The position numbers and the translations under genes are program-made. From the IMG/VR virus record IMGVR_UViG_2551306525_000009: 36,183 nucleotides of DNA. One strand, 5' to 3'. The notes under the pieces are model-generated. The model made no database searches, was not told the DNA's origin, and saw nothing but the letters and a program-made list of their open reading frames with translations. Below, in pieces: positions 4,309 to 30,849 of the stretch (position 1 is the stretch's first letter; every line of letters starts with the position of its first letter). Source of the stretch: a virus. Its lineage: Duplodnaviria > Heunggongvirae > Uroviricota > Caudoviricetes.

Positions 4309-7102
4309 TATCCGGGTCGCTTTCAGCGCCGTTGACAGGCTGACCCGACCTGCCGAAAACGCCCGCCGCCTGATGGGGCAGTTTGGTGACTCCATCCAGC
4401 GAACGCAGGGGGCGATCAAAAATCTCGAGCGTCAGGCGCGTTCATTTGAGCGCGCCCGCGACGCTGTCAGTAAAGCGGATGCGGGTATCGTGAAAGCGCG
4501 ACGCCAGCTTAACGCCCTTAATCAGTTACAACGCACGGGTACAGTGCTCAGCGAAAAACAACAAAAGCTGATGCAGCAGTTAAGCACCCGGCTTGAACGC
4601 CTGAATGAATCGCGCACACGGGAAATTCAGAAAATGCGGGAGCTTGGCGGAGAGCTGAAACGCCACGGCATTTCCCTGACAGGCAGCGATAACACCATCC
4701 AGCAGGCCATCAGACGCACCGAACAGTACAACAACCAGCTTGAACGCGAACGGCAGGCGCTTGCGCGTGTAACGCGGGCGCGTGAGCGGTATTCGCGCGT
4801 GCAGGAAACCGCGGGAAAACTGAAAACAGGTGGTGCGCTGGCAATTGGTGCGGCAGCGGCTGGCGGCTATGCTGCCGGGCGTTTTTTGCAGCCTGCGATC
4901 GGGTTCGGCAAAGAGATGTCCCGCGTTCAGGCACTGACGCGAATCGACCAGAACAGCCCGCAGTTTAAGGCGCTGCGTGAGCAGGCGTTAAAACTTGGCT
5001 CTGAAACGCAGTTCACCGCAGGCGATGCCGCCAGTGGGCAGGCATTTCTTGCAATGGCTGGCTTCACTCCGCAGGCCATTCAGGCTGCGCTTCCCGGCGT
5101 GCTGAGCATGGCAACGGCTGGCGGCATGGATCTCGGCGAGACGGCGGATATTGGCTCAAATATCCTGACGCAGTTCGGCCTTTCTGCTGACCAGATGGAC
5201 CGGGTCGGTGACACACTCACCGCAGCGTTTACCCGTACCAACACTGACCTTCGCGCACTGGGCGAAACCATGAAATATGCAGGTCCGGTTGCGGGTAAGC
5301 TGGGAATATCGCTGGAGCAGGCCGCAGCGATGGCTGGCGTGCTGGCGAATATGGGCATCAGAGGGAGTGATGCCGGGACGGCAATGCGTGCCAGCCTGGC
5401 TCGTCTGGCATCACCGCCAAAGGCAGCAGCAGAGGCGCTGAAAGAGCTTGGTGTGGCAGTCTCTGACGCGAACGGCAAAATGCGCCCGATGGAGGATGTG
5501 CTGGCCGACCTTTATAAAGCCACCCGCAAATACGGGGAAGTTGACCGGGTATCGTTCTTTAAGGACATTGCCGGGGAAGAGGCTTTCACATCGTTTATGG
5601 CGCTCGTTGATGCAGCGGGTGACGGTTCCTTACCTAAACTGAGAAAAGAACTTGAAGGCGCGCGCGGTGAGGCTGAACGCACAGCAAAGGTCATGGCCAA
5701 CAACCTTGACGGCGATCTGAAATCACTCGGCAGTGCATGGGAAGGGTTGCGCATCCGCATTGCAGATCTGATTGACGGTCCGCTGCGTTCTGTCACGCAG
5801 TGGCTCACGCGGGTGGTATCAAGGGTGACGGCGCTGGCGCAGGCCCATCCGGCACTGACGCGCCAGCTACTGATAGCAGGCGGTGCGTTGCTGGCAATGA
5901 CTGCAACGGTTGGCTCGTTGTCGCTGGCTATTGGTGTGCTTGCTGGTCCGCTGGCAAAACTGCGTCTTGGTTTTTCTCTCCTGACCGGATCAATGAATGC
6001 TGTCAGGGTCCTGCCAGCACTATGGGGAATGGTGACGGGTTCCGTTTCTTTACTGGGAGGCGCTATCGGGGCGCTGTTCAGCCCGGTTGGTCTTATCGTG
6101 GCTGCGCTTGCCGGAGCTGCCGTCCTTATCTGGAAATACTGGGATCCCATCAGGGCATTTTTTGCCGGGGTGTTCAGCGGGATTATGGAAAGGCTGACCC
6201 CGTTGCGCGAAACCTTTGAACGGTTTGGTCCTGTTTTTGACGCAATCGGAAGCGGGATAAGCCAGGTGTTTAACTGGTTTAAATCGCTGCTGTCACCGAT
6301 GGAGTCCAGCAAGGAAACGCTGGATAAATGTACCAGTGCTGGCGAGATATTCGGTAACGTTCTTGGCGGTGCGTTACAACTTGTTCTGACACCTGCAAAA
6401 ATGTTGCTGGATACGCTGGCGTGGATACTTGAAAAGCTCGGTGTGCTTCCGGATGAAGCGGAAAGGGCGCGCAAGAAAATCGAAGACGCACAGCGTGCGG
6501 CCATTCTTCAGGACAAGGTTGCCTGGCTTCAGGGGGACCTGGCGAAAATCAATCCGCCGAAGCCTGTGGAAAATGGCAATGGCACCGGAGGTGATAAACC
6601 CAAAGACAACAAACCACTCACAGACAGCAATACCGGTACGCTACGCAGACTCAGCAAAATTGCTGATAACACAGGTAAGCTGGTTGATGAGACGAAAAAA
6701 CGCATTGGCCCCGGCGATATTGTCTTTAAGAACCTGCCCCGCGCACTTGCTGTTCGTGGGGAGTGGCAGGAGCGGAAGATTGCGCAGGTCAGTAAGCCTG
6801 CTTCCGCAATCAATATCACACCCGTGGTCCAGACTCCTCTTCCTCCGGCGCTGGTCCCTGTTGTTGCGGCCAGCTCCCGCCCGGTGGCGGAGGCCATACG
6901 ATCGCCAGTGGCATCAGTTCCTGCAACTTCCCGTAACCGGGAGCCTGTTGTCTCCGGATTTGGCGGTGAAATTCATGTTCATCTGCATAACGTTGTTACG
7001 CAGAATCCCCGCGAACTGGCGAAACTGGTCGGTGAAATGGTCAGGGCAGAGGTGGAACGGCGTGCTCGTGCCGGACGTGGCAGTTTTTACGATAAAGATT
7101 GA
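4286..7102 (+). CDS. T: tail tape measure protein T
   Basis: ~940 aa, coiled-coil N-terminal region, hydrophobic Gly/Ala-rich central segment; between E' and U; start uncertain (GTG 4259, ATG 4286 or 4295). Confidence 0.85.
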   Translation: MQTMKTLDIRVAFSAVDRLTRPAENARRLMGQFGDSIQRTQGAIKNLERQARSFERARDAVSKADAGIVKARRQLNALNQLQRTGTVLSEKQQKLMQQLSTRLERLNESRTREIQKMRELGGELKRHGISLTGSDNTIQQAIRRTEQYNNQLERERQALARVTRARERYSRVQETAGKLKTGGALAIGAAAAGGYAAGRFLQPAIGFGKEMSRVQALTRIDQNSPQFKALREQALKLGSETQFTAGDAASGQAFLAMAGFTPQAIQAALPGVLSMATAGGMDLGETADIGSNILTQFGLSADQMDRVGDTLTAAFTRTNTDLRALGETMKYAGPVAGKLGISLEQAAAMAGVLANMGIRGSDAGTAMRASLARLASPPKAAAEALKELGVAVSDANGKMRPMEDVLADLYKATRKYGEVDRVSFFKDIAGEEAFTSFMALVDAAGDGSLPKLRKELEGARGEAERTAKVMANNLDGDLKSLGSAWEGLRIRIADLIDGPLRSVTQWLTRVVSRVTALAQAHPALTRQLLIAGGALLAMTATVGSLSLAIGVLAGPLAKLRLGFSLLTGSMNAVRVLPALWGMVTGSVSLLGGAIGALFSPVGLIVAALAGAAVLIWKYWDPIRAFFAGVFSGIMERLTPLRETFERFGPVFDAIGSGISQVFNWFKSLLSPMESSKETLDKCTSAGEIFGNVLGGALQLVLTPAKMLLDTLAWILEKLGVLPDEAERARKKIEDAQRAAILQDKVAWLQGDLAKINPPKPVENGNGTGGDKPKDNKPLTDSNTGTLRRLSKIADNTGKLVDETKKRIGPGDIVFKNLPRALAVRGEWQERKIAQVSKPASAINITPVVQTPLPPALVPVVAASSRPVAEAIRSPVASVPATSRNREPVVSGFGGEIHVHLHNVVTQNPRELAKLVGEMVRAEVERRARAGRGSFYDKD

Positions 7103-7108
7103 GGAGTC

Positions 7109-7603
7109 ATGGCCATGATGATGATCTACGGCATGTTTGTTTTTGAGCTGCGCACATTGCCGCATCAGCAGTTACAGCAAAACAAAAGCTGGCGGCATGT
7201 GAAAAATGAGCGCGTAAACCGCTCAGCAAGCTGGCAGTATATCGGTGCAGGTGATGATCGCATCGTGCTTTCTGGCGTGCTTTATCCTGAAATTACAGGT
7301 GGCGAAGTGTCGCTTTCGCTGCTGACCACGCAGGCATATACAGGACGCCCCTGGCCTCTGATTGATGGTGTCGGGCAGATTTACGGCATGTATGTACTGA
7401 CTGAAACGAATACGACCCGCTCCGAGTTTGATCGCTACGGTAAGGCGAAAAAGATAGAGTTTTCACTGACTCTTGAACGCTGTGATGAGGATTTGCGGGA
7501 GCGCCTGCAATCCTCATCGTTCAGTGATATGCTGTCCGGCTTCAAAGATAAGGTCACATCATCCCTTAACAGCGCGGCCAGCTCCGTTAAAGGGCTGTTT
7601 TGA
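7109..7603 (+). CDS. U: tail protein U
   Basis: similarity to P2 gpU (LSGVLYPEITGG, WPLIDG..IYGMYV, KIEFSLTLER blocks). Confidence 0.85.
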   Translation: MAMMMIYGMFVFELRTLPHQQLQQNKSWRHVKNERVNRSASWQYIGAGDDRIVLSGVLYPEITGGEVSLSLLTTQAYTGRPWPLIDGVGQIYGMYVLTETNTTRSEFDRYGKAKKIEFSLTLERCDEDLRERLQSSSFSDMLSGFKDKVTSSLNSAASSVKGLF

Positions 7604-20804: not shown

Positions 20805-22556
20805 ATGATTCAGGACGCTTTTGTGCGCCAGCGTGCGCGGCAACTTTACTGGCAGGGTTATCCGCCCGCAGAAATATCACGTCTGATGGGAATAAACCCG
20901 AACACGATTTATGCGTGGAAAAAACGTGACCAGTGGGATGAAACGCCACCCGTGCAGCGTGTCACGCAGTCCATCGATGCGCGCCTCATCCAGCTTACTG
21001 AAAAACAGAATAAAACAGGCGGTGACTTTAAGGAAATAGACCTGCTGACCCGGCAGCTTAAAAAACTGCATGATGGCCAGCCGGATGCGACGGCCACAGG
21101 AAAGAAAGGCCGGGCGAAAAAACTCAAAAATCATTTCACGCCGGAACAGATTGCCGCACTGCGGGAAAAAATCATCAGCAGGCTGGAGTGGCATCAGCGG
21201 GGCTGGTTTGACGCCCTGACCCTTTGCAGGGAAGCCGGGATACGTAACAGGATGATCCTGAAATCCCGACAGATTGGGGCGACCTGGTATTTTGCACAGG
21301 AAGCACTGCTGATGGCGCTGCGTGACGATGTGGCGCAACCTTACCAGCGTAACCAGATTTTTTTGTCTGCGTCGCGTCGTCAGGCGTTCCAGTTTAAAAG
21401 CATTATTCAGAAGGCCGCGGCTGAAGTTGATGTGGAGCTGAAAGGGGGCGATAAAATCATCCTCTCCAACGGCGCAGAGCTGCATTTTCTCGGCACTTCT
21501 GCTGCGTCGGCACAGTCCTATACGGGCAATTTTTATTTTGATGAATTTTTCTGGGTCAGTCGCTTTGCTGAACTGCGCAAGGTGGCTGGCGCTATGGCAA
21601 CCCTCAGCGGACTGCGGCGCACCTACTTCTCCACGCCATCCACCGAAACGCACGAGGCATACGCCTACTGGAACGGCGACCGCTGGAACGAGAAAAAGGC
21701 CTCGCATAAACGCCAGCGTTTTTCTGTGGACTGGGAAACGCTGCATAACGGACTTATCTGCCCTGACCGGACGTGGCGGCAAATTGTCACGCTGGAAGAT
21801 GTGGTTAATCACGGCTGGAAACACACCGATATTGATGAAATTCGTGATGAAAACACCGAAGACGAGTTCCGCAATCTCTATATGTGTGAGTTTGTCCGCG
21901 AAGGGGAATCGGCATTTAACCTGAATATCCTGATTGGCTGCGGTGTTGACGGATACGACGACTGGAAAGACTGGAAACCTTTTGCTCCCCGCCCGATGGG
22001 GAATCGTCCGGTATGGATTGGGTATGACGCAAACGGCAGCAGTGGCAACGGCGACAGCGGCGCGGTGTCCGTGGTGGTTCCTCCGGCTGTTCCTGGTGGC
22101 CGTTTTCGAACGGTGGAGACGCGACGCGTTCAGGGGCTGGAGTTTGAAGAACAGGCCAGAGTCATTGAAGAGTTCACGTGTCGCTACAACGTGGAACACA
22201 TCGGCATTGATGTGACGGGTGGGAACGGGGAGGCTGTTTATCAGATAGTGAAACGGTTTTTCCCTGCTGCTATTCCGTACACCTTCACGCTGTCATCAAA
22301 ACGGTCGCTGGTACTGAAAATGCTGCAAATAATGCGTGCCGGGCGGTGGGAATACGATCGCGCCGAACGCGAGCTGGTCGCGGCCTTTAACGCCGTGCGT
22401 AAGGTGAAAACACCGGGCGGCTTTATCACTTACGAAACGGACCGCGCGAGGGGGATCAGCCACGGCGACCTTGCGTGGGCAACCATGCTTGCTGTCATTA
22501 ACGAACCGATTGGCGGCGAAGGAGAAAACGAGCGTTTCACGGTTATGGAGTTCTGA
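20805..22556 (+). CDS. P: terminase large (ATPase) subunit P
   Basis: 583 aa; divergent from O as in P2. Confidence 0.9.
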   Translation: MIQDAFVRQRARQLYWQGYPPAEISRLMGINPNTIYAWKKRDQWDETPPVQRVTQSIDARLIQLTEKQNKTGGDFKEIDLLTRQLKKLHDGQPDATATGKKGRAKKLKNHFTPEQIAALREKIISRLEWHQRGWFDALTLCREAGIRNRMILKSRQIGATWYFAQEALLMALRDDVAQPYQRNQIFLSASRRQAFQFKSIIQKAAAEVDVELKGGDKIILSNGAELHFLGTSAASAQSYTGNFYFDEFFWVSRFAELRKVAGAMATLSGLRRTYFSTPSTETHEAYAYWNGDRWNEKKASHKRQRFSVDWETLHNGLICPDRTWRQIVTLEDVVNHGWKHTDIDEIRDENTEDEFRNLYMCEFVREGESAFNLNILIGCGVDGYDDWKDWKPFAPRPMGNRPVWIGYDANGSSGNGDSGAVSVVVPPAVPGGRFRTVETRRVQGLEFEEQARVIEEFTCRYNVEHIGIDVTGGNGEAVYQIVKRFFPAAIPYTFTLSSKRSLVLKMLQIMRAGRWEYDRAERELVAAFNAVRKVKTPGGFITYETDRARGISHGDLAWATMLAVINEPIGGEGENERFTVMEF

Positions 22557-23602
22557 TGAGCAGAAAAAATAAAAAAGTGCGCATGAGTTCACGCATTGAT
22601 CTCGCTGATGCGCTCAGGAAAGAATCATCGCTCAGTGCATTCACATTTGATGGTCCTTATCGCCTGACCGGGCATGACCTGCTGGACAATATGTACTGTG
22701 CTGATAACGGGCGGTGGTATGAAACCCCGGTGGACTGGTACGGTCTGGCAAGAGCCGCCCGGCAAACGTCCTGGCATCAGTCTGCGCTTTACTTTAAGCG
22801 CAATGTATTGCTCGGTTGCTACATCCCGCACCCGCTGCTTTCCCGGCAGGATTTCTCGGCGCTGGCGCTGGACTGGTTTGTGTTCGGTAACGCATTCCTT
22901 GAGCTTCGAAGCAATATGCTCAGCGAACCGCTAAAATTACGGCACGCCCTGGCGAAATACATGCGACGCGGAAGCGATCTTGAATCATGGTGGTATGTGC
23001 AGGATGGCAAGGATGCGTTTCAGTTTCGCCCAGGCAAAGTGTGCCACCTGATGAATCCGGATATTAACCAGGAAATCTACGGCATGCCGGAATATCTCGG
23101 CGCATTACTCTCGGCCAGCCTGTCTCATTCGGCGGACATGTTCAGAAAACTGTATTACGACAACGGATCCCACGCCGGGTGCATCATCTACATCGGTGCA
23201 GCGCAGGTAAACCGCGAAAGCATGGACTCCCTGAAAGAAACGCTACAGGGTGCGCGTGGTGGTGGTGCGTTTAAAAACGTGCTCATTCATGCGCCCAACG
23301 GGGGCAAAGAGGGGGTGCAAATTTTGCCGTTCCAGCAGATCACCGCAAAGGATGAGTTCATGAATGTTAAGGCGGCATCCCGTGATGATGTGCTGGCTGC
23401 GCACCGCGTTCCGCCGCAACTGATGGGGGCGATGCCGGGTGAAAAAAGTGCGTTTGGTGATGTGGAGAAGGCCGCGCGGGTTTACGCAATTAACGAGCTG
23501 ATGCCCGTCATGGAGGCCATGAAGCACATCAATGACTGGCTTGGCGAAGAGGTGATCCGCTTTAACCCTTATGCACTGCTGGACACCCAGCCCACATCCT
23601 GA
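22556..23602 (+). CDS. Q: portal protein Q
   Basis: 348 aa; start overlaps P stop (TGATG). Confidence 0.85.
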   Translation: MSRKNKKVRMSSRIDLADALRKESSLSAFTFDGPYRLTGHDLLDNMYCADNGRWYETPVDWYGLARAARQTSWHQSALYFKRNVLLGCYIPHPLLSRQDFSALALDWFVFGNAFLELRSNMLSEPLKLRHALAKYMRRGSDLESWWYVQDGKDAFQFRPGKVCHLMNPDINQEIYGMPEYLGALLSASLSHSADMFRKLYYDNGSHAGCIIYIGAAQVNRESMDSLKETLQGARGGGAFKNVLIHAPNGGKEGVQILPFQQITAKDEFMNVKAASRDDVLAAHRVPPQLMGAMPGEKSAFGDVEKAARVYAINELMPVMEAMKHINDWLGEEVIRFNPYALLDTQPTS

Positions 23603-23629
23603 CGCGCTTCGCTTGTCTGCTGCTTCGCC

Positions 23630-23652
23630 GGGGCATAAAAAATTTATGCCCC
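23630..23652. other. hairpin 28 bp after Q (GGGGCATAAA-aaa-TTTATGCCCC)
   Basis: 10-bp perfect stem read directly; no U-tract, function unknown. Confidence 0.4.
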
Positions 23653-23932
23653 GACTCTCCAGCTCCTGTATCAGTCAGATAATTTCACGACGCTTTCCTG
23701 CTTATTGCCATCATCGACGGTCAGATTCTTACGCAATCCCACCGCGTTAACTGCATGTTCTCGCCGCCTCAGTGCGATTTTGACGGCCTTACCTTTCACC
23801 CCATCAAATCAAAAGCCCTCACGTCTTTTTCACGCTCAGCGTGAGAAATACAGCCATTCTGTTGTGTTGCTGCGACATCGTTCAGGGGATGCTATTTACC
23901 CCCTGAAACGCGGGCTGTTCCCCCGTCACCTG

Positions 23933-23956
23933 CGCGCAGAAAAAGCGCGTTTTTTT
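23933..23956 (+). terminator. rho-independent terminator (CGCGC-agaaaaa-GCGCG followed by T7)
   Basis: GC stem plus seven T read directly; could stop read-through from the P-Q operon. Confidence 0.5.
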
Positions 23957-24026
23957 GTGCACGCACGGATCCTTGACGGATCCAGCCGCCATGCGGGCCG
24001 GAAGGGTAAAAAGTCGTTCAAAAAAA

Positions 24027-24053
24027 TTGTGCAAATTTGTGCACTATTGTGCA
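24027..24053. repeat. three direct TTGTGCA repeats at 10-bp phasing (TTGTGCAAAT TTGTGCACTA TTGTGCAAC)
   Basis: read directly; helical-turn spacing suggests a protein-binding array. Confidence 0.5.
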
Positions 24054-24070
24054 ACAGAGAAAGAAGGCCA

Positions 24071-24102
24071 GGAAGAAAGAAAAGCCGCCTTCAAAAGGCA
24101 GC
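24071..24102 (-). terminator. rho-independent terminator closing the leftward accessory operon
   Basis: minus strand reads GCTGCCTT-ttga-AGGCGGC then TTTTCTTTCTTCC, 43 nt after the 24145 stop. Confidence 0.6.
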
Positions 24103-24144
24103 TTTTCAGATTAGTAAGGGATTGATAGATAGTCGTCGCAAAAC

Positions 24145-24525
24145 TCAAAAAGAAGACTGGAACTCTTCTGCTCTGCGCTCAATTTCTGCCATGTAGGATG
24201 TACGGGCTAACTCATGCGCATTGGGTGTCATAATGCTGATTAGCTGATACTTATCTGGATATAAGAAATGGCGGGAGTAAACAAGATAACTGTTTGATTT
24301 ACGCGAGGCGGCAGGTAGCTTTGCAGGCCACGGCTGTTCATCAGGTAAACGAATGTGAATCTTAAAAACAAAAGAATCACGAAGACGCCCGCTATCTTCC
24401 CACTGCCCTTCGTTGCCAAAGACTGAGGGTAAAGATCCGCCGTTTTTCCATGACTGCAAAGCATGTGCATATTTGCGAGCAACTGCGGGGAGTTCTATGT
24501 CATTGTGGACAGAGACTTTAATCAT
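24145..24525 (-). CDS. YafO-like toxin-domain protein
   Basis: 126 aa; C-terminal LISIMTPNAHELAR...AEEF resembles E. coli YafO (LIAILKPEPHKLAR...AEAF, from memory); also SLPSVFG vs VLPDIFG and SYLVYS vs AHLVYC. Confidence 0.5.
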   Translation of the reverse strand: MIKVSVHNDIELPAVARKYAHALQSWKNGGSLPSVFGNEGQWEDSGRLRDSFVFKIHIRLPDEQPWPAKLPAASRKSNSYLVYSRHFLYPDKYQLISIMTPNAHELARTSYMAEIERRAEEFQSSF

Positions 24526-24534
24526 GGCCCTGCC

Positions 24535-25128
24535 TTAATGGAACGTTGGATCTTTAAGGCCCAGCTTTTTATGTTCACTGCGGATAAGTGCGCGAACCTG
24601 ATCGGCGGTAACACCCAGATCAGCATCTGAAGTTTTCTTCGGCACATGCGTGCTTTCAATGAAGGATAAAATATCTTCAATCGTATAGCGGAGCGTCGCA
24701 GCGGAACGAGCAAAAGCGACAATCTCTTTTCTCAGTTCCGCGTTACTTTCAGGTACGCTTTTCAGCGCAACCCTTGCAGCCTCGACAAAACTTGCACATA
24801 CCGCAATATGACGGAAAAGGCTTTCAAACCCTTCCTGAGTCTCTTTTTTCTGATTTTTCAGAATAATAGGGATCTGCTTTTCTTCCCATTCGATGCGAAG
24901 GTTTGCCCTGTGTGTCTTCATCCTATCAGCCAGGTTAAGCATATAACTGGTGGCCTCATCAATAGGAAGGTATGCCACAGAATCCTTTACGTCCTGGAGG
25001 GATAGCGTAGACGTACTGTGCCGGGAGATTGATAAGTCATGATGCACAATGCTACTGGCAGGAACAGGGGCGAGAGCCACCGCCAGCGCTGCGGCCATAG
25101 ATGTTATTTTATTTTTTTTACTGCTCAT
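24535..25128 (-). CDS. hypothetical protein, 197 aa, N-terminus resembles a signal peptide or TM anchor (MSSKKNKITSMAAALAVALAPVPASS)
   Basis: ORF with GGAAAGG RBS; 9 nt upstream of the YafO-like gene; not recognisable as YafN/RelB-type antitoxin. Confidence 0.55.
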   Translation of the reverse strand: MSSKKNKITSMAAALAVALAPVPASSIVHHDLSISRHSTSTLSLQDVKDSVAYLPIDEATSYMLNLADRMKTHRANLRIEWEEKQIPIILKNQKKETQEGFESLFRHIAVCASFVEAARVALKSVPESNAELRKEIVAFARSAATLRYTIEDILSFIESTHVPKKTSDADLGVTADQVRALIRSEHKKLGLKDPTFH

Positions 25129-25217
25129 AATTGCCTTTCCTGCCAATAATCGTGAACCACTGCCGGAATGATAGCGCAAAAAATCACCCGCTGAAACGAA
25201 TTATCCTTGCGGCAAAA

Positions 25218-25304
25218 CTAGCCCGCGTCAACCTCATACCACGCCAGCGTCGATTGATAGTTTTGTGCCGCCTCGCGTAATGCCTGATAGTCAATTTTGC
25301 TCAC
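25218..25304 (-). CDS. putative 28-aa micro-ORF (VSKIDYQALREAAQNYQSTLAWYEVDAG), GTG start overlapping upstream stop
   Basis: AGGAGG 7 nt upstream of GTG; GTGA overlap with stop of the 174-aa gene; identified manually. Confidence 0.3.
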   Translation of the reverse strand: MSKIDYQALREAAQNYQSTLAWYEVDAG

Positions 25305-25825
25305 TGGTTGCCTCCTTTGTGTTGCGTCAGCTCTTCCTGCGCCTGCATCATGCGATTGACCTGAATGCGTGTGCGTCGAACGGCAAAATTAAATTGAAAC
25401 ATGAGCCGGAACATTTCTGAGGCTTCCGTGTGAGCATCATGGAGAGGTGACAGGCGGTACAGTTCTGCCTCCGTAGCTTGTTGAATCAATGACAGATCAA
25501 ATTGAAGTGCGGGTCTGGTACATTTTGCACTTCTGGCAGCAAGCTCCGGCATCAGTTTCTTAACGAAGGTGTTTTGCACCGCTTTGTTGAGTTGTGTCTG
25601 CATCCAAATCGCAAATTTCAGCGAACGCATAAGTTTGATAGCCTCGGGCAGCGGCAGATAGATCATGCTGGTAGATTTGGGTGGTTGGTGAATCATCTTC
25701 ACGGATACGCGATTTCGCAGCGTTCGGAAAATCGTGTTCCCAACAACAGCTTCTACGGATACAGGACAGGGAGCCAGACCAGCCCGCAGTGCTTCTTTCA
25801 TTGGCATGTATTCGTATTTTTTCAT
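25301..25825 (-). CDS. hypothetical protein, 174 aa
   Basis: ORF with GAGGA RBS; no family recognised. Confidence 0.55.
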   Translation of the reverse strand: MKKYEYMPMKEALRAGLAPCPVSVEAVVGNTIFRTLRNRVSVKMIHQPPKSTSMIYLPLPEAIKLMRSLKFAIWMQTQLNKAVQNTFVKKLMPELAARSAKCTRPALQFDLSLIQQATEAELYRLSPLHDAHTEASEMFRLMFQFNFAVRRTRIQVNRMMQAQEELTQHKGGNQ

Positions 25826-25885
25826 CGTGTTTTCCTCGTGCGGGGCGACAGTGCACCCCGATAAAATTAAAAGCCGTCAAATTCG

Positions 25886-26221
25886 TCATTCATGCGTTTT
25901 TTCTTCATGGTCTGTCACTTCTCCCCTGATAATTTCATTGCACAAATCCACGCACTCATTGCAGATGTAAACAGACGGTCCGGCAATCACCTTTATGACT
26001 TCGTGCTGGGATTTATTGCAGAAGCTGCAATAAATCGTCTTCTTGCCTGAAGTCCATGTTTTGCTGATTTCGCCAGACATCAGTTGCTTGATGTCTTTTT
26101 CACGACGAAGAACTATCTGGCCACATTCAGCTATTTTTTGGATGTTGACATTTTCTTCTTTCGCCAGCGCTTCCATTCGCTCAATCAGTCGCTGCGCTTT
26201 TTCTCTGTCAATGTGTTGCAT
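25886..26221 (-). CDS. small protein with ClpX-type C4 zinc-binding domain (ZBD) at its C-terminus
   Basis: [39 protein letters not shown] is near-identical to the E. coli ClpX N-terminal ZBD ([39 protein letters not shown], from memory); GGGGG RBS. Confidence 0.8.
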
Positions 26222-26255
26222 TGTGTCCCCCTTGTTTATGTTCCCGGATTAAAGT

Positions 26256-26279
26256 CATCAGGGCGGATGCGCCCTGATG
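26256..26279. other. hairpin between parR and the ClpX-ZBD gene (CATCAGGGCG-gatg-CGCCCTGATG)
   Basis: perfect 10-bp stem read directly; may separate transcription units or stabilise mRNA. Confidence 0.45.
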
Positions 26280-26284
26280 TTGTG

Positions 26285-26596
26285 TTATTCGGGAAATAAC
26301 GCCCGGATATTTCTGGCCATCTGACTGGTTATCTGTGCGGTTGATACTGGCTGTGACGCGGGGCGTTCTGTCCTGGTTTGTGTCACCGATAACGCCTCAT
26401 CGTCAGCCCATGCAGCCAGTCGGTAAGCCTCTGCCGGATTCATTTTCAGAAGTGCCAGCCCGGCCAGAAAAGCCACGCGTTGGCCGCTTTTGCGGGCTTC
26501 TGGTGTAAGGCTGTCCAGCCAGGCGCATGCTTCGCCTTCGTTCTTGACGGCGGCGGGCTTCAGATAGAAACTTATCCGTCTGGTTGGTGTCGTCAT
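26285..26596 (-). CDS. parR: ParR-like ribbon-helix-helix centromere-binding protein
   Basis: RRISFYLKP...LDSLTPEARKSGQRVAFLAGLALLKMNP...IRALFPE parallels plasmid R1 ParR (from memory); AGGAG RBS. Confidence 0.7.
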   Translation of the reverse strand: MTTPTRRISFYLKPAAVKNEGEACAWLDSLTPEARKSGQRVAFLAGLALLKMNPAEAYRLAAWADDEALSVTQTRTERPASQPVSTAQITSQMARNIRALFPE

Positions 26597-26600
26597 TGGT

Positions 26601-27560
26601 TTACTCCTTGTCCATTGCGTACAGCCCATTAACCAGAGCAAACTGTGGCACCCCGTCCGCGATGAAAGTCGCATTAACTCCGCAGGCTTCGCGGATAGCG
26701 GGTGCCACAATCTCCGCCCCTCCACCGACAACCATCACCCGCCCGTAACCCGAAAAACCCGCCAGCGCGCGGATCACGCGTTGTTTCAGTGTTTCTTCCT
26801 TTTCACGAATAACCTCCATCAGGCTGGCGTAATGCGCGTCATTGTGGATGTGCTGGCGCAGCCAGGCTTCATTATGGCGATGTTCGATAATGGTATTGGC
26901 GATGTGGTGACTGGTGCGCATACCGTTAGTGGCCATCACCGACAGTACGGCATCGGCCATCAGAGAAACGCCTACGTGTGGATCGCAAAACACCTGGCTG
27001 ATACCTGCCAGTTGCCCCTGAACCTTTGCCACATCCAGCGTGGTTCCGCCCAAATCTACAATCAGCAGGGATTCAAACGGACTCATGTCAGCCAGTGCCT
27101 TAAAGCCAGCCGGAATGGATTCAGGCATAACCCGCACGTTACGGATAGTGAATGCTTCGCCGTTCTGGTACTCCACCGGGCGCATAACGTTCGCTTTTTT
27201 GCGGTTGATGTTGGCCATGTCCGGCTGTGCGTTTGTGTCGAAATACTCGCTCAGTGGCAGGGTGACAACCACATCCACCTCCTGTGGCGTGATGCCTGAT
27301 TTGACCAGCGCGTGATGAATGGCAATGACATTCACATCGCTGTACTGGTATTGCGTGTCGGTCGTCTGGACAAAGCGATCGCTGACCGGATCAAAACCAT
27401 AGCGCACGCCATCAAGCATGTAGTTCGCAGGCTGCGAGCCACCGAACGGCGCAGACCATTCCGACTTGAAGCTGTTCGGGCTGATGGCGTTGCGGCGTTC
27501 GCCGTTCTCAGTCCATGCCAGCTTGATGTTGGTGGAGCCGTCGTCGATACAAATTTTCAT
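26601..27560 (-). CDS. parM: ParM/StbA-family actin-like segregation ATPase
   Basis: MKICIDDGSTNIKL (phosphate-1), LIVDLGGTTLDV (phosphate-2), VVGGGAEIV (adenosine) motifs; 319 aa. Confidence 0.8.
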   Translation of the reverse strand: MKICIDDGSTNIKLAWTENGERRNAISPNSFKSEWSAPFGGSQPANYMLDGVRYGFDPVSDRFVQTTDTQYQYSDVNVIAIHHALVKSGITPQEVDVVVTLPLSEYFDTNAQPDMANINRKKANVMRPVEYQNGEAFTIRNVRVMPESIPAGFKALADMSPFESLLIVDLGGTTLDVAKVQGQLAGISQVFCDPHVGVSLMADAVLSVMATNGMRTSHHIANTIIEHRHNEAWLRQHIHNDAHYASLMEVIREKEETLKQRVIRALAGFSGYGRVMVVGGGAEIVAPAIREACGVNATFIADGVPQFALVNGLYAMDKE

Positions 27561-27596
27561 GTCGCTTTTCCTTATGTTGATTAATTAATCGTTTAC

Positions 27597-27627
27597 GGGA
27601 TTCTGAAATCCCGTTTTTGCCTGTTTT
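27597..27627. repeat. repeat unit 1: GGGATTctgaAATCCCGTTTTTGCCTGTTTT (internal 6-bp palindrome), between parM start and A stop
   Basis: read directly; second near-identical copy 74 bp away. Confidence 0.6.
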
Positions 27628-30463
27628 ATGCGCGCTTCATATATCGCGGCGCGTTTTTTTGCTCATTTATGGGATTTGTGAATCCCGTTTCTGTCTGTTT
27701 TTTGTTTCCACTGGTCAGGCCACCCCGCAGCAGGTCTGCTTTGCGGCGGGCGCGTTCAGTGGTTTCACTGATTCTCTGTGCGTGCTCTGCGTCGCGGATG
27801 GCGCGCAGCATGTCAGAAAGCACGGTAACGGGTGTTTTCATGGTGTTCTGGTCCTGCTGAAGTGTGGATGCCAGGCGTGCGGCGGCTTCAGGGTCTGATG
27901 CCCCCAGCTGTGCCAGATAGCTGGCGACCGGGTTATGGCGGATCTCCGTGCTGCTTACATCGTGATTACGGCTCAGGCGCTGCCAGAGCTGCGTGATTCG
28001 GCTGTCCGGGCGGGTATCCGGTTTGCGTACAATTTCAAATCCCTGCGGTGCAATGATGCTGCCGTCAACGTACAGACTGCCGCCCCGTAACAGGTGCTGC
28101 ATCTGTTGTTCACCGATATGCAGGCCAAGGGATTCAGCAGACTCCCGCCATTCTTTAGCGAGTAATTCGTGGTTATCAGGCAAAGGCCGCTGCTGTTTGC
28201 GGCTCTGTGTCCAGCTCTGCATTTCATCACTGTTGTTTTTTGCCTGTTTGTCACGCAGCGAACGCATCAGCGCCCGGCGTTCGTGCCGTTTCAGTGAGTG
28301 CAGCCATTCGTTCACTTCAACACCGTCAGGGATCTGCGGCCACGGTGCTGGCCGTTCTTCCGGCTGTTCTGTCCCGTTGTTGTCCGTTTCCTGTACACGG
28401 GGACAGTTATTGCCACGAGTCCAAGGGGCGGCAGGGCCGCCCTGAAGGTCAAAACCATTTTCGCGGGCGCTGTCTTCCGCTTCCGGTTTACGTCTTACCA
28501 GCTTCCAGTTATCCGGATGCGTGCACACACGGGAGGATTCCCCGATGAGTGGTGACCAGATCCCGTAAATCTGTACGCTCTGTTCGCCGTAATCGTTCAG
28601 CTCATCGGCGAGGTCGTAGGCGGTGCGAATCAGGTAGTCCTTGCGTGGAACAAGTACGCCGCCCTGTTTCTCTATATAGGTGGCAAAACATCCGGCATCA
28701 GCGGCAGCGAGTACCGCATCCATTGCGTCATCCTTCAGCCGTTGCGGGCCTTCCGGGTTGCGTGCCATCTGGCTGGCAAGGCGGCGGAGTTCACGCCACA
28801 CCTGACGGGAGGGGATGCCAAAGAACTGGAACTGGCGGACCCGGTGAAGGCGCGCCCAGCCGATGGCGCGCTCCACGCTCTCGGCCATTGATTTTCCGGT
28901 TTCGTGGTCAACGCGTGGTTTGCCCGTTTTCGGGTCGATGCCATCCACGGCGCGGCTGTCCAGGTTCTTTCCGATGTAGGTGGCGATGTAGCTGGTTGGC
29001 GTGCCTTTTGAGCCGTCTACATACTCCGCCTTAAAGCGCGGAGTAATATCATCACCCAGCTCGTGACGATCTTCCTGAATGGCAATATCGCGGGTGTGGG
29101 ACACAATGGTGTCGATTTCTTCCGGATGGGCAAAGACCATCATATGCCAGTGTACGGTGCCGTCATGGTGAGGCTCCACCGTGCGGATGCCATACCAGCG
29201 CAGGCCGTCGCGGTTCAGTTTTTTGCGGACCGCCGCAAAAAACGTGTTAACCAGGTAGTCGCTGGAGTCGCGCATGGTGGCCCCGTTCCATTTGGGGTTC
29301 GGATGACCGTTCTCCGTTGTTGCGTGGTATTTTGACGGGCAGGTGACAGTCAGAAACACCGCTTTGTCACCACGGGCTTCGGCCAGAAGTTCCAGCCCCT
29401 TCATGGTGGCCATCATTTCTGCCTTACGGTGAACCGGGTTACTTACTCCCGCGTAATACACTGTCTCGAGATCAATCGTGAACCCGTCTTCGTTTTCCAG
29501 CATGAAACTTTTCAGGAAATCGCGTGTTTTCTCGCGCTGTGCGCGAAACTCGCTTAACGCGTCCTGGCTCAGATAAGGCGATGTTTTTCTGGAAACCAGA
29601 CAGGCGGCGCGGAGTTGTTCTTCTCTCCACTCGCAACGTAACAGCCACAGTTTGCGTTTCCACCAGTCCGCACAGGTCAGGCGAAGGATTGCGCCCGGCA
29701 GCAGTTCCGTATCCGGTTCGCTCTTGTTCAGGGCTTCGTAATGTGGCGGCATGATGTGCAGGCGTAATGCGATACGAGCCAGCATCCGGTAAGCCTTCAA
29801 CATTACATCCATGGTCAGCTCGCCATCTCTGGCACCAAAGCCATCGCAGAGTGTTTCGAAGGTGCTGCTGAACATCGCCGCGGTCATGGTGGCCAGCGTC
29901 TGTATCTGGTGCTTGTTGAGCTGCGGCAGGTAAAGCAAATCGTCCAGGCGTTCGCGCCCGGCAAGGGAGCGATAACCCGGTGTCAGCCAGCGTCCGTCAG
30001 TGCGATCCAGACGTTCGAATATTTTGCGCAGGGGTCCGCGTGCATAGCGTTCCGCCTGCCAGCTCTTTTTACCTTTCTGGCGATCGGCTTCCTGTTTTTT
30101 GCGCAGGAAAGAGAGGTGGCGGCTCAGTGGTTCACGCAGATAAACAGGTAGTGCCTTTAGTGTGGCAAAGGCACGGGCTACCGGGTCTTGTTCTGTTGCC
30201 CGGCGCTTACTGATGATGCTCTGTGCCAGCTTTTCACGCTGTCCGGCTTCCTCAAGGGATGCCATGAGTTTTTTACCCATGGCGGATTGTGCGAAAAAGG
30301 CTTCTTCCTTCGCTTCCTGTTCTTCCTGTGCCCTTTTGTCCGCCTCAAGGTAGTAACGGATGGCGCGTTGCAGGTCGGTTTCAGTTTCCTGCCTGCGCTC
30401 CGTAAATCTGGCCGGATCAATGGCTGGCCGTGGTTCATTCCAGCTCCATGCAAACTCGCTCAT
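27626..30463 (-). CDS. A: replication initiation protein A (rolling-circle initiator, P2 gpA family)
   Basis: TVTCPSKYH, VEPHHDGTVHWHMMVF and YIATYIGKN active-site blocks as in P2/186 gpA; start either ATG 30463 (ATGA-coupled) or GTG 30490. Confidence 0.85.
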   Translation of the reverse strand: MSEFAWSWNEPRPAIDPARFTERRQETETDLQRAIRYYLEADKRAQEEQEAKEEAFFAQSAMGKKLMASLEEAGQREKLAQSIISKRRATEQDPVARAFATLKALPVYLREPLSRHLSFLRKKQEADRQKGKKSWQAERYARGPLRKIFERLDRTDGRWLTPGYRSLAGRERLDDLLYLPQLNKHQIQTLATMTAAMFSSTFETLCDGFGARDGELTMDVMLKAYRMLARIALRLHIMPPHYEALNKSEPDTELLPGAILRLTCADWWKRKLWLLRCEWREEQLRAACLVSRKTSPYLSQDALSEFRAQREKTRDFLKSFMLENEDGFTIDLETVYYAGVSNPVHRKAEMMATMKGLELLAEARGDKAVFLTVTCPSKYHATTENGHPNPKWNGATMRDSSDYLVNTFFAAVRKKLNRDGLRWYGIRTVEPHHDGTVHWHMMVFAHPEEIDTIVSHTRDIAIQEDRHELGDDITPRFKAEYVDGSKGTPTSYIATYIGKNLDSRAVDGIDPKTGKPRVDHETGKSMAESVERAIGWARLHRVRQFQFFGIPSRQVWRELRRLASQMARNPEGPQRLKDDAMDAVLAAADAGCFATYIEKQGGVLVPRKDYLIRTAYDLADELNDYGEQSVQIYGIWSPLIGESSRVCTHPDNWKLVRRKPEAEDSARENGFDLQGGPAAPWTRGNNCPRVQETDNNGTEQPEERPAPWPQIPDGVEVNEWLHSLKRHERRALMRSLRDKQAKNNSDEMQSWTQSRKQQRPLPDNHELLAKEWRESAESLGLHIGEQQMQHLLRGGSLYVDGSIIAPQGFEIVRKPDTRPDSRITQLWQRLSRNHDVSSTEIRHNPVASYLAQLGASDPEAAARLASTLQQDQNTMKTPVTVLSDMLRAIRDAEHAQRISETTERARRKADLLRGGLTSGNKKQTETGFTNPINEQKNAPRYMKRA
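27671..27701. repeat. repeat unit 2: GGGATTtgtgAATCCCGTTTCTGTCTGTTTT, inside the 3' coding end of gene A
   Basis: read directly; candidate parC-like centromere/operator or part of the replication origin. Confidence 0.6.
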
Positions 30464-30849
30464 GGCTGGTATCCCGTCACGCGCTGCCACTCCTGCGAGA
30501 AGATGGCGGAAAGGCGGTTAAATTCAGCGGTGTATTCACTCAGCGAGGCACACCCGCCAGCAGTGCGATGCGCCAGCATTGCCGCGAATACGGAGGCCGG
30601 GGAGTCGTAATACGCCAGCAGTGATTCGCCGTGTGGTGTCAGGCAGTGCAACGCCAGCCCGTGTGGTGTGAAGTCCACGCGGTAGCAGTCGTCTACTGTG
30701 AAATAAAGGGTGTCCGCATTCTCCGGTTTTGTAGTGCGTGCTCTGTTGTCACGACCACGGATGTAAAGATCAAATAATCCCTGAAGAACGGGAGCCAGAC
30801 GGGTGTCCTGTGTGCGCACCCATCTTGTGAAGTCATGAGCGTCAATCAT
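30460..30849 (-). CDS. hypothetical protein, 129 aa, stop overlapping A start
   Basis: ORF translationally coupled to A. Confidence 0.5.
   Translation of the reverse strand: MIDAHDFTRWVRTQDTRLAPVLQGLFDLYIRGRDNRARTTKPENADTLYFTVDDCYRVDFTPHGLALHCLTPHGESLLAYYDSPASVFAAMLAHRTAGGCASLSEYTAEFNRLSAIFSQEWQRVTGYQP

Follow-up and report, generated by a model that had tools for sequence, protein, structure and literature searches.

ClpXP decides the fates of replication initiators, stress sigma factors, SOS and cell-division proteins, and many antitoxins, and much of its selectivity operates through a zinc-binding domain (ZBD) located at the N-terminus of ClpX. The clients of this N-domain include UmuD', lambda O, MuA, FtsZ, SspB, and MqsA (PMC8808172, PMC5415555). 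Degradation of lambda O requires the ClpX ZBD, in which the patch formed by F16 and I46 (mature numbering; F17 and I47 in the Met1 numbering used below) overlaps the lambda O site; SspB, RssB, and trigger factor also bind to this hydrophobic region (PMC7804408). Here we analyzed a 36,183-nucleotide (nt) stretch of viral DNA (IMG/VR record IMGVR_UViG_2551306525_000009; hereafter the window), whose minus strand encodes at 25886..26221 a small protein with a ClpX-type ZBD and no ATPase, named the ZBD protein. As in Escherichia coli ClpX, the four cysteines of its predicted C4 motif are spaced identically, 31 of 36 core residues are the same, and the F17/I47 patch and the C-terminal helix of the domain are kept. 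Unlike in ClpX, the ZBD is located at the C-terminus instead of the N-terminus, behind a family-specific hairpin and without any AAA+ module. The positions L12, H23, R26, and D38 of ClpX are changed or polymorphic, and the DNA is 65% identical.

RexB of phage lambda is a membrane protein of unknown mechanism. As an accessory protein of a temperate phage, it is reported to prevent the degradation of lambda O, Phd, and MazE by ClpX/ClpA (PMC11077077) and provides a functional precedent, the protection of an initiator and of antitoxins from ClpX-dependent degradation being the outcome that we propose here by analogy. The ZBD protein has no sequence or structure relation to RexB and would mimic a domain of the recognition module of the protease. 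The anti-adaptors IraP, IraM, and IraD act on RssB. In these proteins and in the SspB-tail competitor, as may be the case here, the substrate choice of ClpXP is controlled by occupying a docking interface; the C-terminal peptide of SspB, for instance, inhibits the N-domain-dependent degradation of MqsA (PMC8808172). However, these factors target the adaptor itself or imitate its tail, whereas in our case the docking domain of the protease itself would be mimicked. Short open reading frames (ORFs) for a ZBD without an ATPase are also present in Pseudomonas phage PP9W2 (a 65-residue 'Clp protease'), BUCT566, phi1, Bacillus phage G (gp258), and Caulobacter phage Cr30. They differ from the ZBD protein in their sequence (45-55% identity, limited to the ZBD), in consisting essentially of the ZBD with no hairpin, and in belonging to other phage groups and hosts, and we found none of them characterized. 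Our literature searches across 8 million papers returned no study on the function of a ZBD-only protein from a phage, and nothing relevant on a phage ClpX inhibitor. RefSeq, PHROGs, and a supplementary table already list the gene family by its domain, and the observation itself is not new.

Architecture of the ZBD protein and its ClpX-like surface

The ORF starts with an ATG and comprises 111 codons plus a stop codon, and the strong Shine-Dalgarno sequence AAGGGGGA, read in the sequence at 26226..26233 on the minus strand, is located 4 nt before the start. Both the reading frame and its own ribosome-binding site agree with the original prediction, which had been made from the letters of the window. 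The protein is organized as hairpin, linker, and ZBD. The N-terminal helical hairpin (codons 1-48, 26078..26221, minus strand as for all features of this gene) was delineated by family alignments and by an AlphaFold2 model of the 111-residue protein, in which the helices 6-22 and 27-48 have predicted local distance difference test (pLDDT) values of 83-91. The linker (codons 49-62, 26036..26077) is disordered in the model over residues ~49-62, with pLDDT <50, and evolves fast, nonsynonymous change being at least equal to synonymous change and its length differing among lineages. The C4-type ZBD (codons 63-101, 25919..26035) follows and is modeled with its C-terminal helix.

Several lines of comparison assign this domain to the ClpX type. 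Residues 64-99 match positions 2-38 of the 39-position zf-C4_ClpX profile (PF06689; E=1.3e-17; score of 63.8 bits, curated cut-off 27), and a phmmer search of the PDB retrieved 1OVX and 2DS5, two entries for the ZBD of E. coli ClpX (E=5e-20 to 1e-19). The predicted ZBD of the AlphaFold2 model superimposes on 2DS5/2DS8 with a root-mean-square deviation of 0.7 Å over 37-38 residues (probability 1.00). The zinc-ligand cysteines C65 (26027-26029), C68 (26018-26020), C87 (25961-25963), and C90 (25952-25954) are in register with C15, C18, C37, and C40 of ClpX, keep the CxxC-18-CxxC spacing, and are invariant in all 17 family members compared, which bears out the claim that all four ligands are present. 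The identity to E. coli ClpX, given earlier as 33 of 40, was slightly high and essentially right: the best 40-residue frame has 32 identities, with 33 of 45 over ClpX residues 10-54 and 31 of 36 (86%) over the core from Y14 to R49. The ClpX equivalog models (NCBIfam TIGR00382/NF003745) gave 49.2 bits, far below their cut-offs of 370.75/359, and were matched at positions 3-53 only. From these matches, the 111-residue protein is a ZBD-only protein lacking the ATPase, and not a ClpX, in line with the earlier description of a helical N-terminal region placed before the ZBD.

The hairpin shows its own conservation, with E17, E23, and L38 invariant and R39, R40, D43, and L47 nearly invariant in the family alignments. 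When the hairpin alone was searched against 5.8 billion proteins, only fragments of the same gene were retrieved, and no significant fold match was found in the PDB or BFVD. An exhaustive HMMER search with the full-length protein returned mostly ZBD matches and five full-length cluster representatives. The helical hairpin is specific to the ZBD-protein family, and the combination of hairpin and ZBD occurs only in enterobacterial temperate phages.

We next consider the surface of the domain, for which 12 distinct bona fide ClpX N-termini were compared with 17 family members in Met1 numbering. Beside the cysteines, the residues kept are L13 (L/I), Y14, S16, F17, K20, S21, Q22, V25, K27, I29, A30, and G31, together with V34, Y35, I36, E39, V41, D42, N45, I47, I48, and R49. 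Changed or variable positions are L12 (to T/A/P/N), G19 (to N), E24, R26 (to T/K/I), and D46 (to E/N). The position of ClpX H23 is occupied by Y in nine members and by H in seven of the 17 (H73 in the window, Y73 in phage P88), the D38 position by N in 13 of the 17, and in the phage-plasmid clade P32 and L43 differ as well. MqsA-degron binding is impaired by the ClpX mutations L12S, L13A/D, and H23A. A part in SspB-tail binding has also been ascribed to H23, and the tail peptide is a competitor of MqsA (PMC8808172). In the phage domain, scaffold and central hydrophobic patch are ClpX-like, and the rim of the pocket is altered and polymorphic among alleles. The changed rim (T62, H/Y73, I/T76, and N88) points to a client range that has been narrowed or shifted, and not to a faithful copy.

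Origin, selection, and distribution of the gene

The description of the domain as a near-exact host copy is adequate for the protein core and fails for the DNA. Over 45 aligned codons, the identity to MG1655 clpX is 65% (76%, 82%, and 38% at the three codon positions), and the same codon is used at 12 of 33 identical residues. Because the DNA identity is this low and the third positions are saturated, the gene is no recent copy of host clpX, and selection keeps the protein ClpX-like. Among the matches listed, the ZBD reaches 79% with Pseudomonas ClpX, about equal to its similarity to E. coli ClpX. The ZBD of each lineage is 70-88% identical to ClpX and on average 62-73% identical to the ZBDs of the other lineages. 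These values fit a history in which the gene arose long ago from the N-terminus of a proteobacterial clpX and the lineages then drifted independently under constraint; taken alone, they do not demonstrate tracking of the host sequence.

Between the window gene and its homologs in D6 and other phage-plasmids, the ratio of nonsynonymous to synonymous rates (dN/dS) lies at 0.18-0.25 for the full gene and at 0.24-0.38 for the ZBD. In the hairpin region, the nonsynonymous proportion (pN) is ~0.3 with the synonymous proportion (pS) saturated, and the linker evolves freely. Purifying selection is thereby indicated for both domains, across ~50% protein divergence.

The window represents a P88-like Xuanwuvirus (Peduoviridae), one of the P2-like prophages of E. 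coli, and the ZBD protein is the ortholog of P88 gp19 (YP_009113062; L001 6002-6334) with 91% amino-acid identity. In GenBank, RefSeq, and nr, gp19 is labeled 'carboxylate--amine ligase', evidently a mis-annotation, which has spread to D6 orf93 and many plasmid records. The RefSeq PGAP name is 'ClpX C4-type zinc finger protein', and the gene occurs in 112 of 5,426 complete E. coli genomes, nearly always on the chromosome. Residues 1-105 also match positions 5-106 of the 107-position profile phrog_6797 (E=8.9e-57), a family whose function is given as unknown in PHROGs. Full-length homologs were found on ~94 plasmids, mostly non-mobilizable; D6 orf93 and the phage-plasmid homologs are 49-56% identical to the ZBD protein over its full length. 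In D6 and the phage-plasmids of ~90-110 kb, the gene is placed in early or accessory blocks of small genes (Ead/Ea22-like, DUF4752, Icd, and Ref). Among P88-like viral contigs, it is present in 25 of 67 complete parR-to-portal intervals (37%) and missing from 42. Truncated or frameshifted alleles were also observed (P0010-P0018 and P0121).

Exchange between these two kinds of carrier is visible at the loci L087-L089, which have a P88-like backbone. Their gpA and ParM are 93-97% identical to those of the window, whereas the ZBD allele is of the phage-plasmid type (49-54%) and is followed by a homolog (73-78%) of w174, the gene next downstream in the window. This pattern indicates exchange of the region comprising the ZBD gene and w174 between P2-like phages and phage-plasmids. 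Non-ClpX ZBD proteins are widespread, with 12,573 cluster representatives that include tandem multi-ZBD proteins. Tandem arrays of two to six ClpX-type ZBDs without an ATPase were seen in many small metagenomic proteins (P0156, P0173, P0204, P0212, P0213, P0237, and others).

Possible action on the ClpX network and alternative explanations

We tentatively favor the reading that the ZBD protein serves as a decoy or a heterodimerizing mimic and retunes ClpXP recognition via the ClpX N-domain. Action on the ClpX network would be the most economical explanation, because a ClpX-like ZBD surface is kept without the ATPase. The structural premise of the original prediction, namely a free ClpX-type ZBD with no ATPase, under purifying selection and carried by temperate phages, stands in our analysis, and the steps built on that premise are given here as a proposal. 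Read-through of an early transcript would produce the ZBD protein, which may bind zinc and dimerize like the ClpX ZBD, as its conserved core and helix suggest. The hairpin may provide ROP-like oligomerization or a second binding surface or specificity; a hairpin of ~45 residues would hardly be stable by itself, which makes ROP-like pairing plausible. By one route, the protein would compete with the ClpX N-domains for the clients that need them, with the adaptors SspB and RssB, lambda-O-type initiators, MuA, UmuD', and antitoxins such as MqsA as candidates. By a second route, it would pair with the ClpX N-domain itself. The net effect would be that N-domain-dependent ClpXP proteolysis is selectively blocked or retuned, leaving pore-recognized (ssrA-type) degradation intact.

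Several pay-offs can be considered. A phage protein may be stabilized, or ClpXP-dependent toxin-antitoxin or abortive-infection defenses may be blocked. Mu is a ClpX-dependent rival phage, and its exclusion is another possible pay-off. Interference with restriction alleviation may be a further one (PMC12707154). CmdTAC, a defense system of the hypervariable region of P2-like phages, is inactive in a delta-clpX strain (bioRxiv 10.1101/2024.02.24.581848). It is conceivable, though rather doubtful, that the ZBD protein is the first viral mimic of the substrate- and adaptor-docking domain of an AAA+ protease, in which a modified pocket and an oligomerizing hairpin would reprogram the substrate choice of ClpXP in early development and which would have spread as a 391-nt cassette among P2-like phages and phage-plasmids. 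Such a mimic could, for example, stabilize a phage replication or regulatory protein or disarm CmdTAC-type defenses.

A number of observations weigh against action through the ClpX N-domain. Interaction of the ZBD protein with ClpX or its adaptors and inhibition of ClpXP are predictions from sequence logic and precedent. Among the rim positions, L12 and H23 are replaced by non-ClpX residues (T/A) or polymorphic (H/Y), and R26 and D38 differ; because L12 and H23 matter for binding of the degron and the SspB tail (PMC8808172), a faithful adaptor decoy is not guaranteed. The ZBD fold can clearly serve other purposes, as seen in the 12,573 non-ClpX cluster representatives. The gene is dispensable, because 63% of the related P88-like loci lack it and deletions have occurred repeatedly. 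Heterodimerization, moreover, must outcompete the homodimer of the ClpX ZBD, which is reportedly tight.

The strongest alternative, which we consider unlikely but worth weighing, is independent of ClpX: the ZBD would be a zinc-stabilized scaffold for dimerization or peptide binding, and the hairpin would be the effector acting on another phage or host target. The abundance of ZBDs outside ClpX, including the tandem arrays lacking an ATPase, is consistent with such a role, as are the pocket-rim residues unlike those of ClpX and the hairpin, whose conservation equals that of the ZBD and which this family alone possesses. However, a ClpX-independent scaffold does not account for a core with 31/36 identity and an intact F17/I47 patch alongside saturated synonymous sites. 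Nor does it account for the finding that every lineage resembles ClpX no less than it resembles the rest of the family.

An adaptor function is improbable. In this case, the ZBD would pair with the ClpX N-domain, or the hairpin would dock onto ClpX, and a host or rival-phage protein would be delivered to ClpXP, the ZBD protein promoting degradation instead of inhibiting it. Two domains on a flexible tether are typical of adaptors, and helix 2 contains the invariant or nearly invariant L38-R39-R40, which we take to be loosely like the ZBD-tethering motifs LRVV/LREI of SspB and UmuD. However, these residues are modeled with confidence as helical; the SspB tail, by contrast, adopts a strand on binding. 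Neither a candidate target nor a partner gene was found for such an adaptor at this locus. Steering defense proteins to housekeeping proteases is described in a review as an expected and still undiscovered phage strategy (PMC12707154).

If our favored reading of the ZBD protein as a ClpX N-domain mimic is true, mimicry of the recognition domain of a protease would add a new way of taking over the host or countering its defenses, and domain mimicry would be new among phage modulators of host proteases. As a naturally occurring tool, the protein could also allow proteolysis that depends on the N-domain to be told apart from pore-dependent proteolysis in vivo. Nature provides the material in near-isogenic prophages with and without the 391-nt cassette and in the H73/Y73 alleles at a ligand-relevant residue. 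If the protein acts independently of ClpX, a function would be defined for a widespread and uncharacterized class of stand-alone ZBDs.

The facultative cassette and its neighbors

On the minus strand of the window, the order of genes is the gpA-like replication endonuclease (27626-30490), ParM (26601-27560), ParR (26285-26596), a hairpin, the ZBD gene, w174 (25301-25825, with its own ribosome-binding site GAGGAA at 25825), w214 (24535-25179, with a signal-peptide-like N-terminus from an internal Met, MSSKKNKITSMAAALAVALAPVPASS), a YafO-family toxin (24145-24525; Pfam E=2.3e-27), and the homologs of P88 gp21 (23822-23962) and gp22 (23674-23799). ParR is the upstream neighbor of the ZBD gene, which comes next in the co-directional block 26285..30490, and the portal gene (22556-23602, plus strand) is convergent after the cargo. 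The ZBD gene is thus placed between gpA and the portal gene, in the gpA-gpQ interval known as a hotspot of cargo and defense genes in P2-like phages (PMC9122126). The supplement of that study lists the arrangement 'StbA + Plasmid_stab_B + zf-C4_ClpX' (also '+ hypothetical'), and its main text is silent on such arrangements (PMC9122126).

The unit of presence and absence is a cassette of 391 nt (25893..26283, minus strand) comprising a hairpin, the ribosome-binding site, and the ORF. In L152 (IMGVR_UViG_2778261498_000008), the flanks are 98.7-98.8% identical to the window and exactly 25893-26283 is missing, with an 8-nt microhomology at the junction. The cassette is absent from L112 with the same boundaries. 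In loci of the gp20 type, such as L157 compared with L038, an internal deletion of ~280 nt between the 13-nt repeats ACAGA(G/C)AAAAAGG leaves the start and the end of the ORF. The GC-rich hairpin (26256..26279, minus strand) has a 10-bp stem with seven GC pairs and a 4-nt loop, flanked by an outer stem (26241-26249/26287-26295), and its local fold of -25.8 kcal/mol (z = -4.3) confirms the structure that the original prediction had noticed. Its proposed role as a separator from parR does not stand, as the hairpin belongs to the cassette and is lost jointly with the ORF in the relatives that lack the gene. Because no U-tract follows on the sense strand, it is not a canonical terminator isolating the ZBD gene from parR. 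A stem-loop at ~25838-25862, just 3' of the ORF, equals shuffled sequence (z = 0.19), and no sigma-70-like promoter was detected in 23500-27700. The ZBD gene is most likely expressed through read-through from the early or par transcript.

The link to parR is specific to this lineage and incidental. In four further, divergent P2-like prophage lineages, whose homologs P0019, P0129, and P0187 share 43-60% identity with the window protein, gpA has 763-871 residues and parMR is missing. In these four lineages, the gene is again co-directional with gpA, one or two small ORFs downstream of it; next come convergent Ogr/Delta and portal genes, or just the portal gene. The conserved position is the distal end of the early or replication operon, not adjacency to parR.

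The cargo downstream of the ZBD gene (23674..25825) is present in L152 without the ZBD gene and is no part of its function. Across lineages, the immediate downstream genes (gp20, w174, Phd/Doc, and others) fall into mutually unrelated clusters, and each type of neighbor, including w174-w214-YafO, also occurs without the ZBD gene (67 P88-like intervals; L152). A conserved partner in the form of ZBD plus w174, gp20, Phd/Doc, or YafO was rejected for these reasons. As no neighbor is conserved, the ZBD gene is taken to have a single-gene function, and it is a self-contained, facultative, single-gene cassette.

These neighbors bear on a further explanation, namely that the gene is part of a multi-gene defense or toxin-antitoxin system of the gpA-gpQ hotspot and regulates, for example, Phd/Doc or YafO, which we regard as highly improbable. 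The location in the P2 defense hotspot (PMC9122126), the YafO-family toxin two genes downstream, and the status of Phd as a reported ClpXP substrate (PMC11077077) would agree with it. Phd/Doc adjoins the gene in L016 (3083-3834) and in L020, L021, L023, and L024 (~6506-7254), and it adjoins the gene as well in the distant L093 (4849-5630), whose ZBD is 37% identical. Phd/Doc was counted in three of 25 loci with the ZBD gene versus none of 42 without it (one-sided Fisher ~0.05 by hand calculation, the loci being probably not independent), an association that is marginal and suggestive. However, the adjacent partner expected of a type II toxin-antitoxin pair was not conserved beside the ZBD gene, PADLOC (E<=0.01) gave no match for the ZBD protein or its neighbors, the literature searches found no experiment showing protection, and the other P2-like lineages and the phage-plasmids have no nearby toxin. 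With unrelated downstream genes across lineages and all neighbor types also found without the ZBD gene, such a system is largely refuted by the missing conserved partner. A functionless, decaying clpX fragment, to which the truncated or frameshifted alleles and the internal deletions of some prophages might point, is ruled out with hardly any doubt by the selection analysis, since both domains are under purifying selection across ~50% protein divergence, the two-domain architecture, the ribosome-binding site, and the position in several lineages are conserved, and synonymous sites are saturated relative to clpX.

Other features of the region were noted. The proteins of w174 and w214 have no Pfam, PHROG, or NCBIfam match. 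The YafO-family toxin is present without a recognizable YafN antitoxin, and the w174-w214-YafO block moves as a unit. A 109-residue ORF (25560-25889, minus strand) overlaps the stop codon of the ZBD gene by 4 nt and w174 in another frame; it has no family matches and is probably spurious. Two 42-nt direct repeats (27589-27630 and 27663-27704), 79% identical, 74 nt apart, and each containing an 8-bp palindrome (ACGGGATT....AATCCCGT), straddle the gpA stop and the parM start and are candidate ParR-binding (parC-like) sites or terminators. The window also carries a complete ParM/ParR partition module (26285-27560, minus strand) in an integrating P2-like prophage, and 121 of 122 matching sites in E. 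coli genomes are chromosomal.

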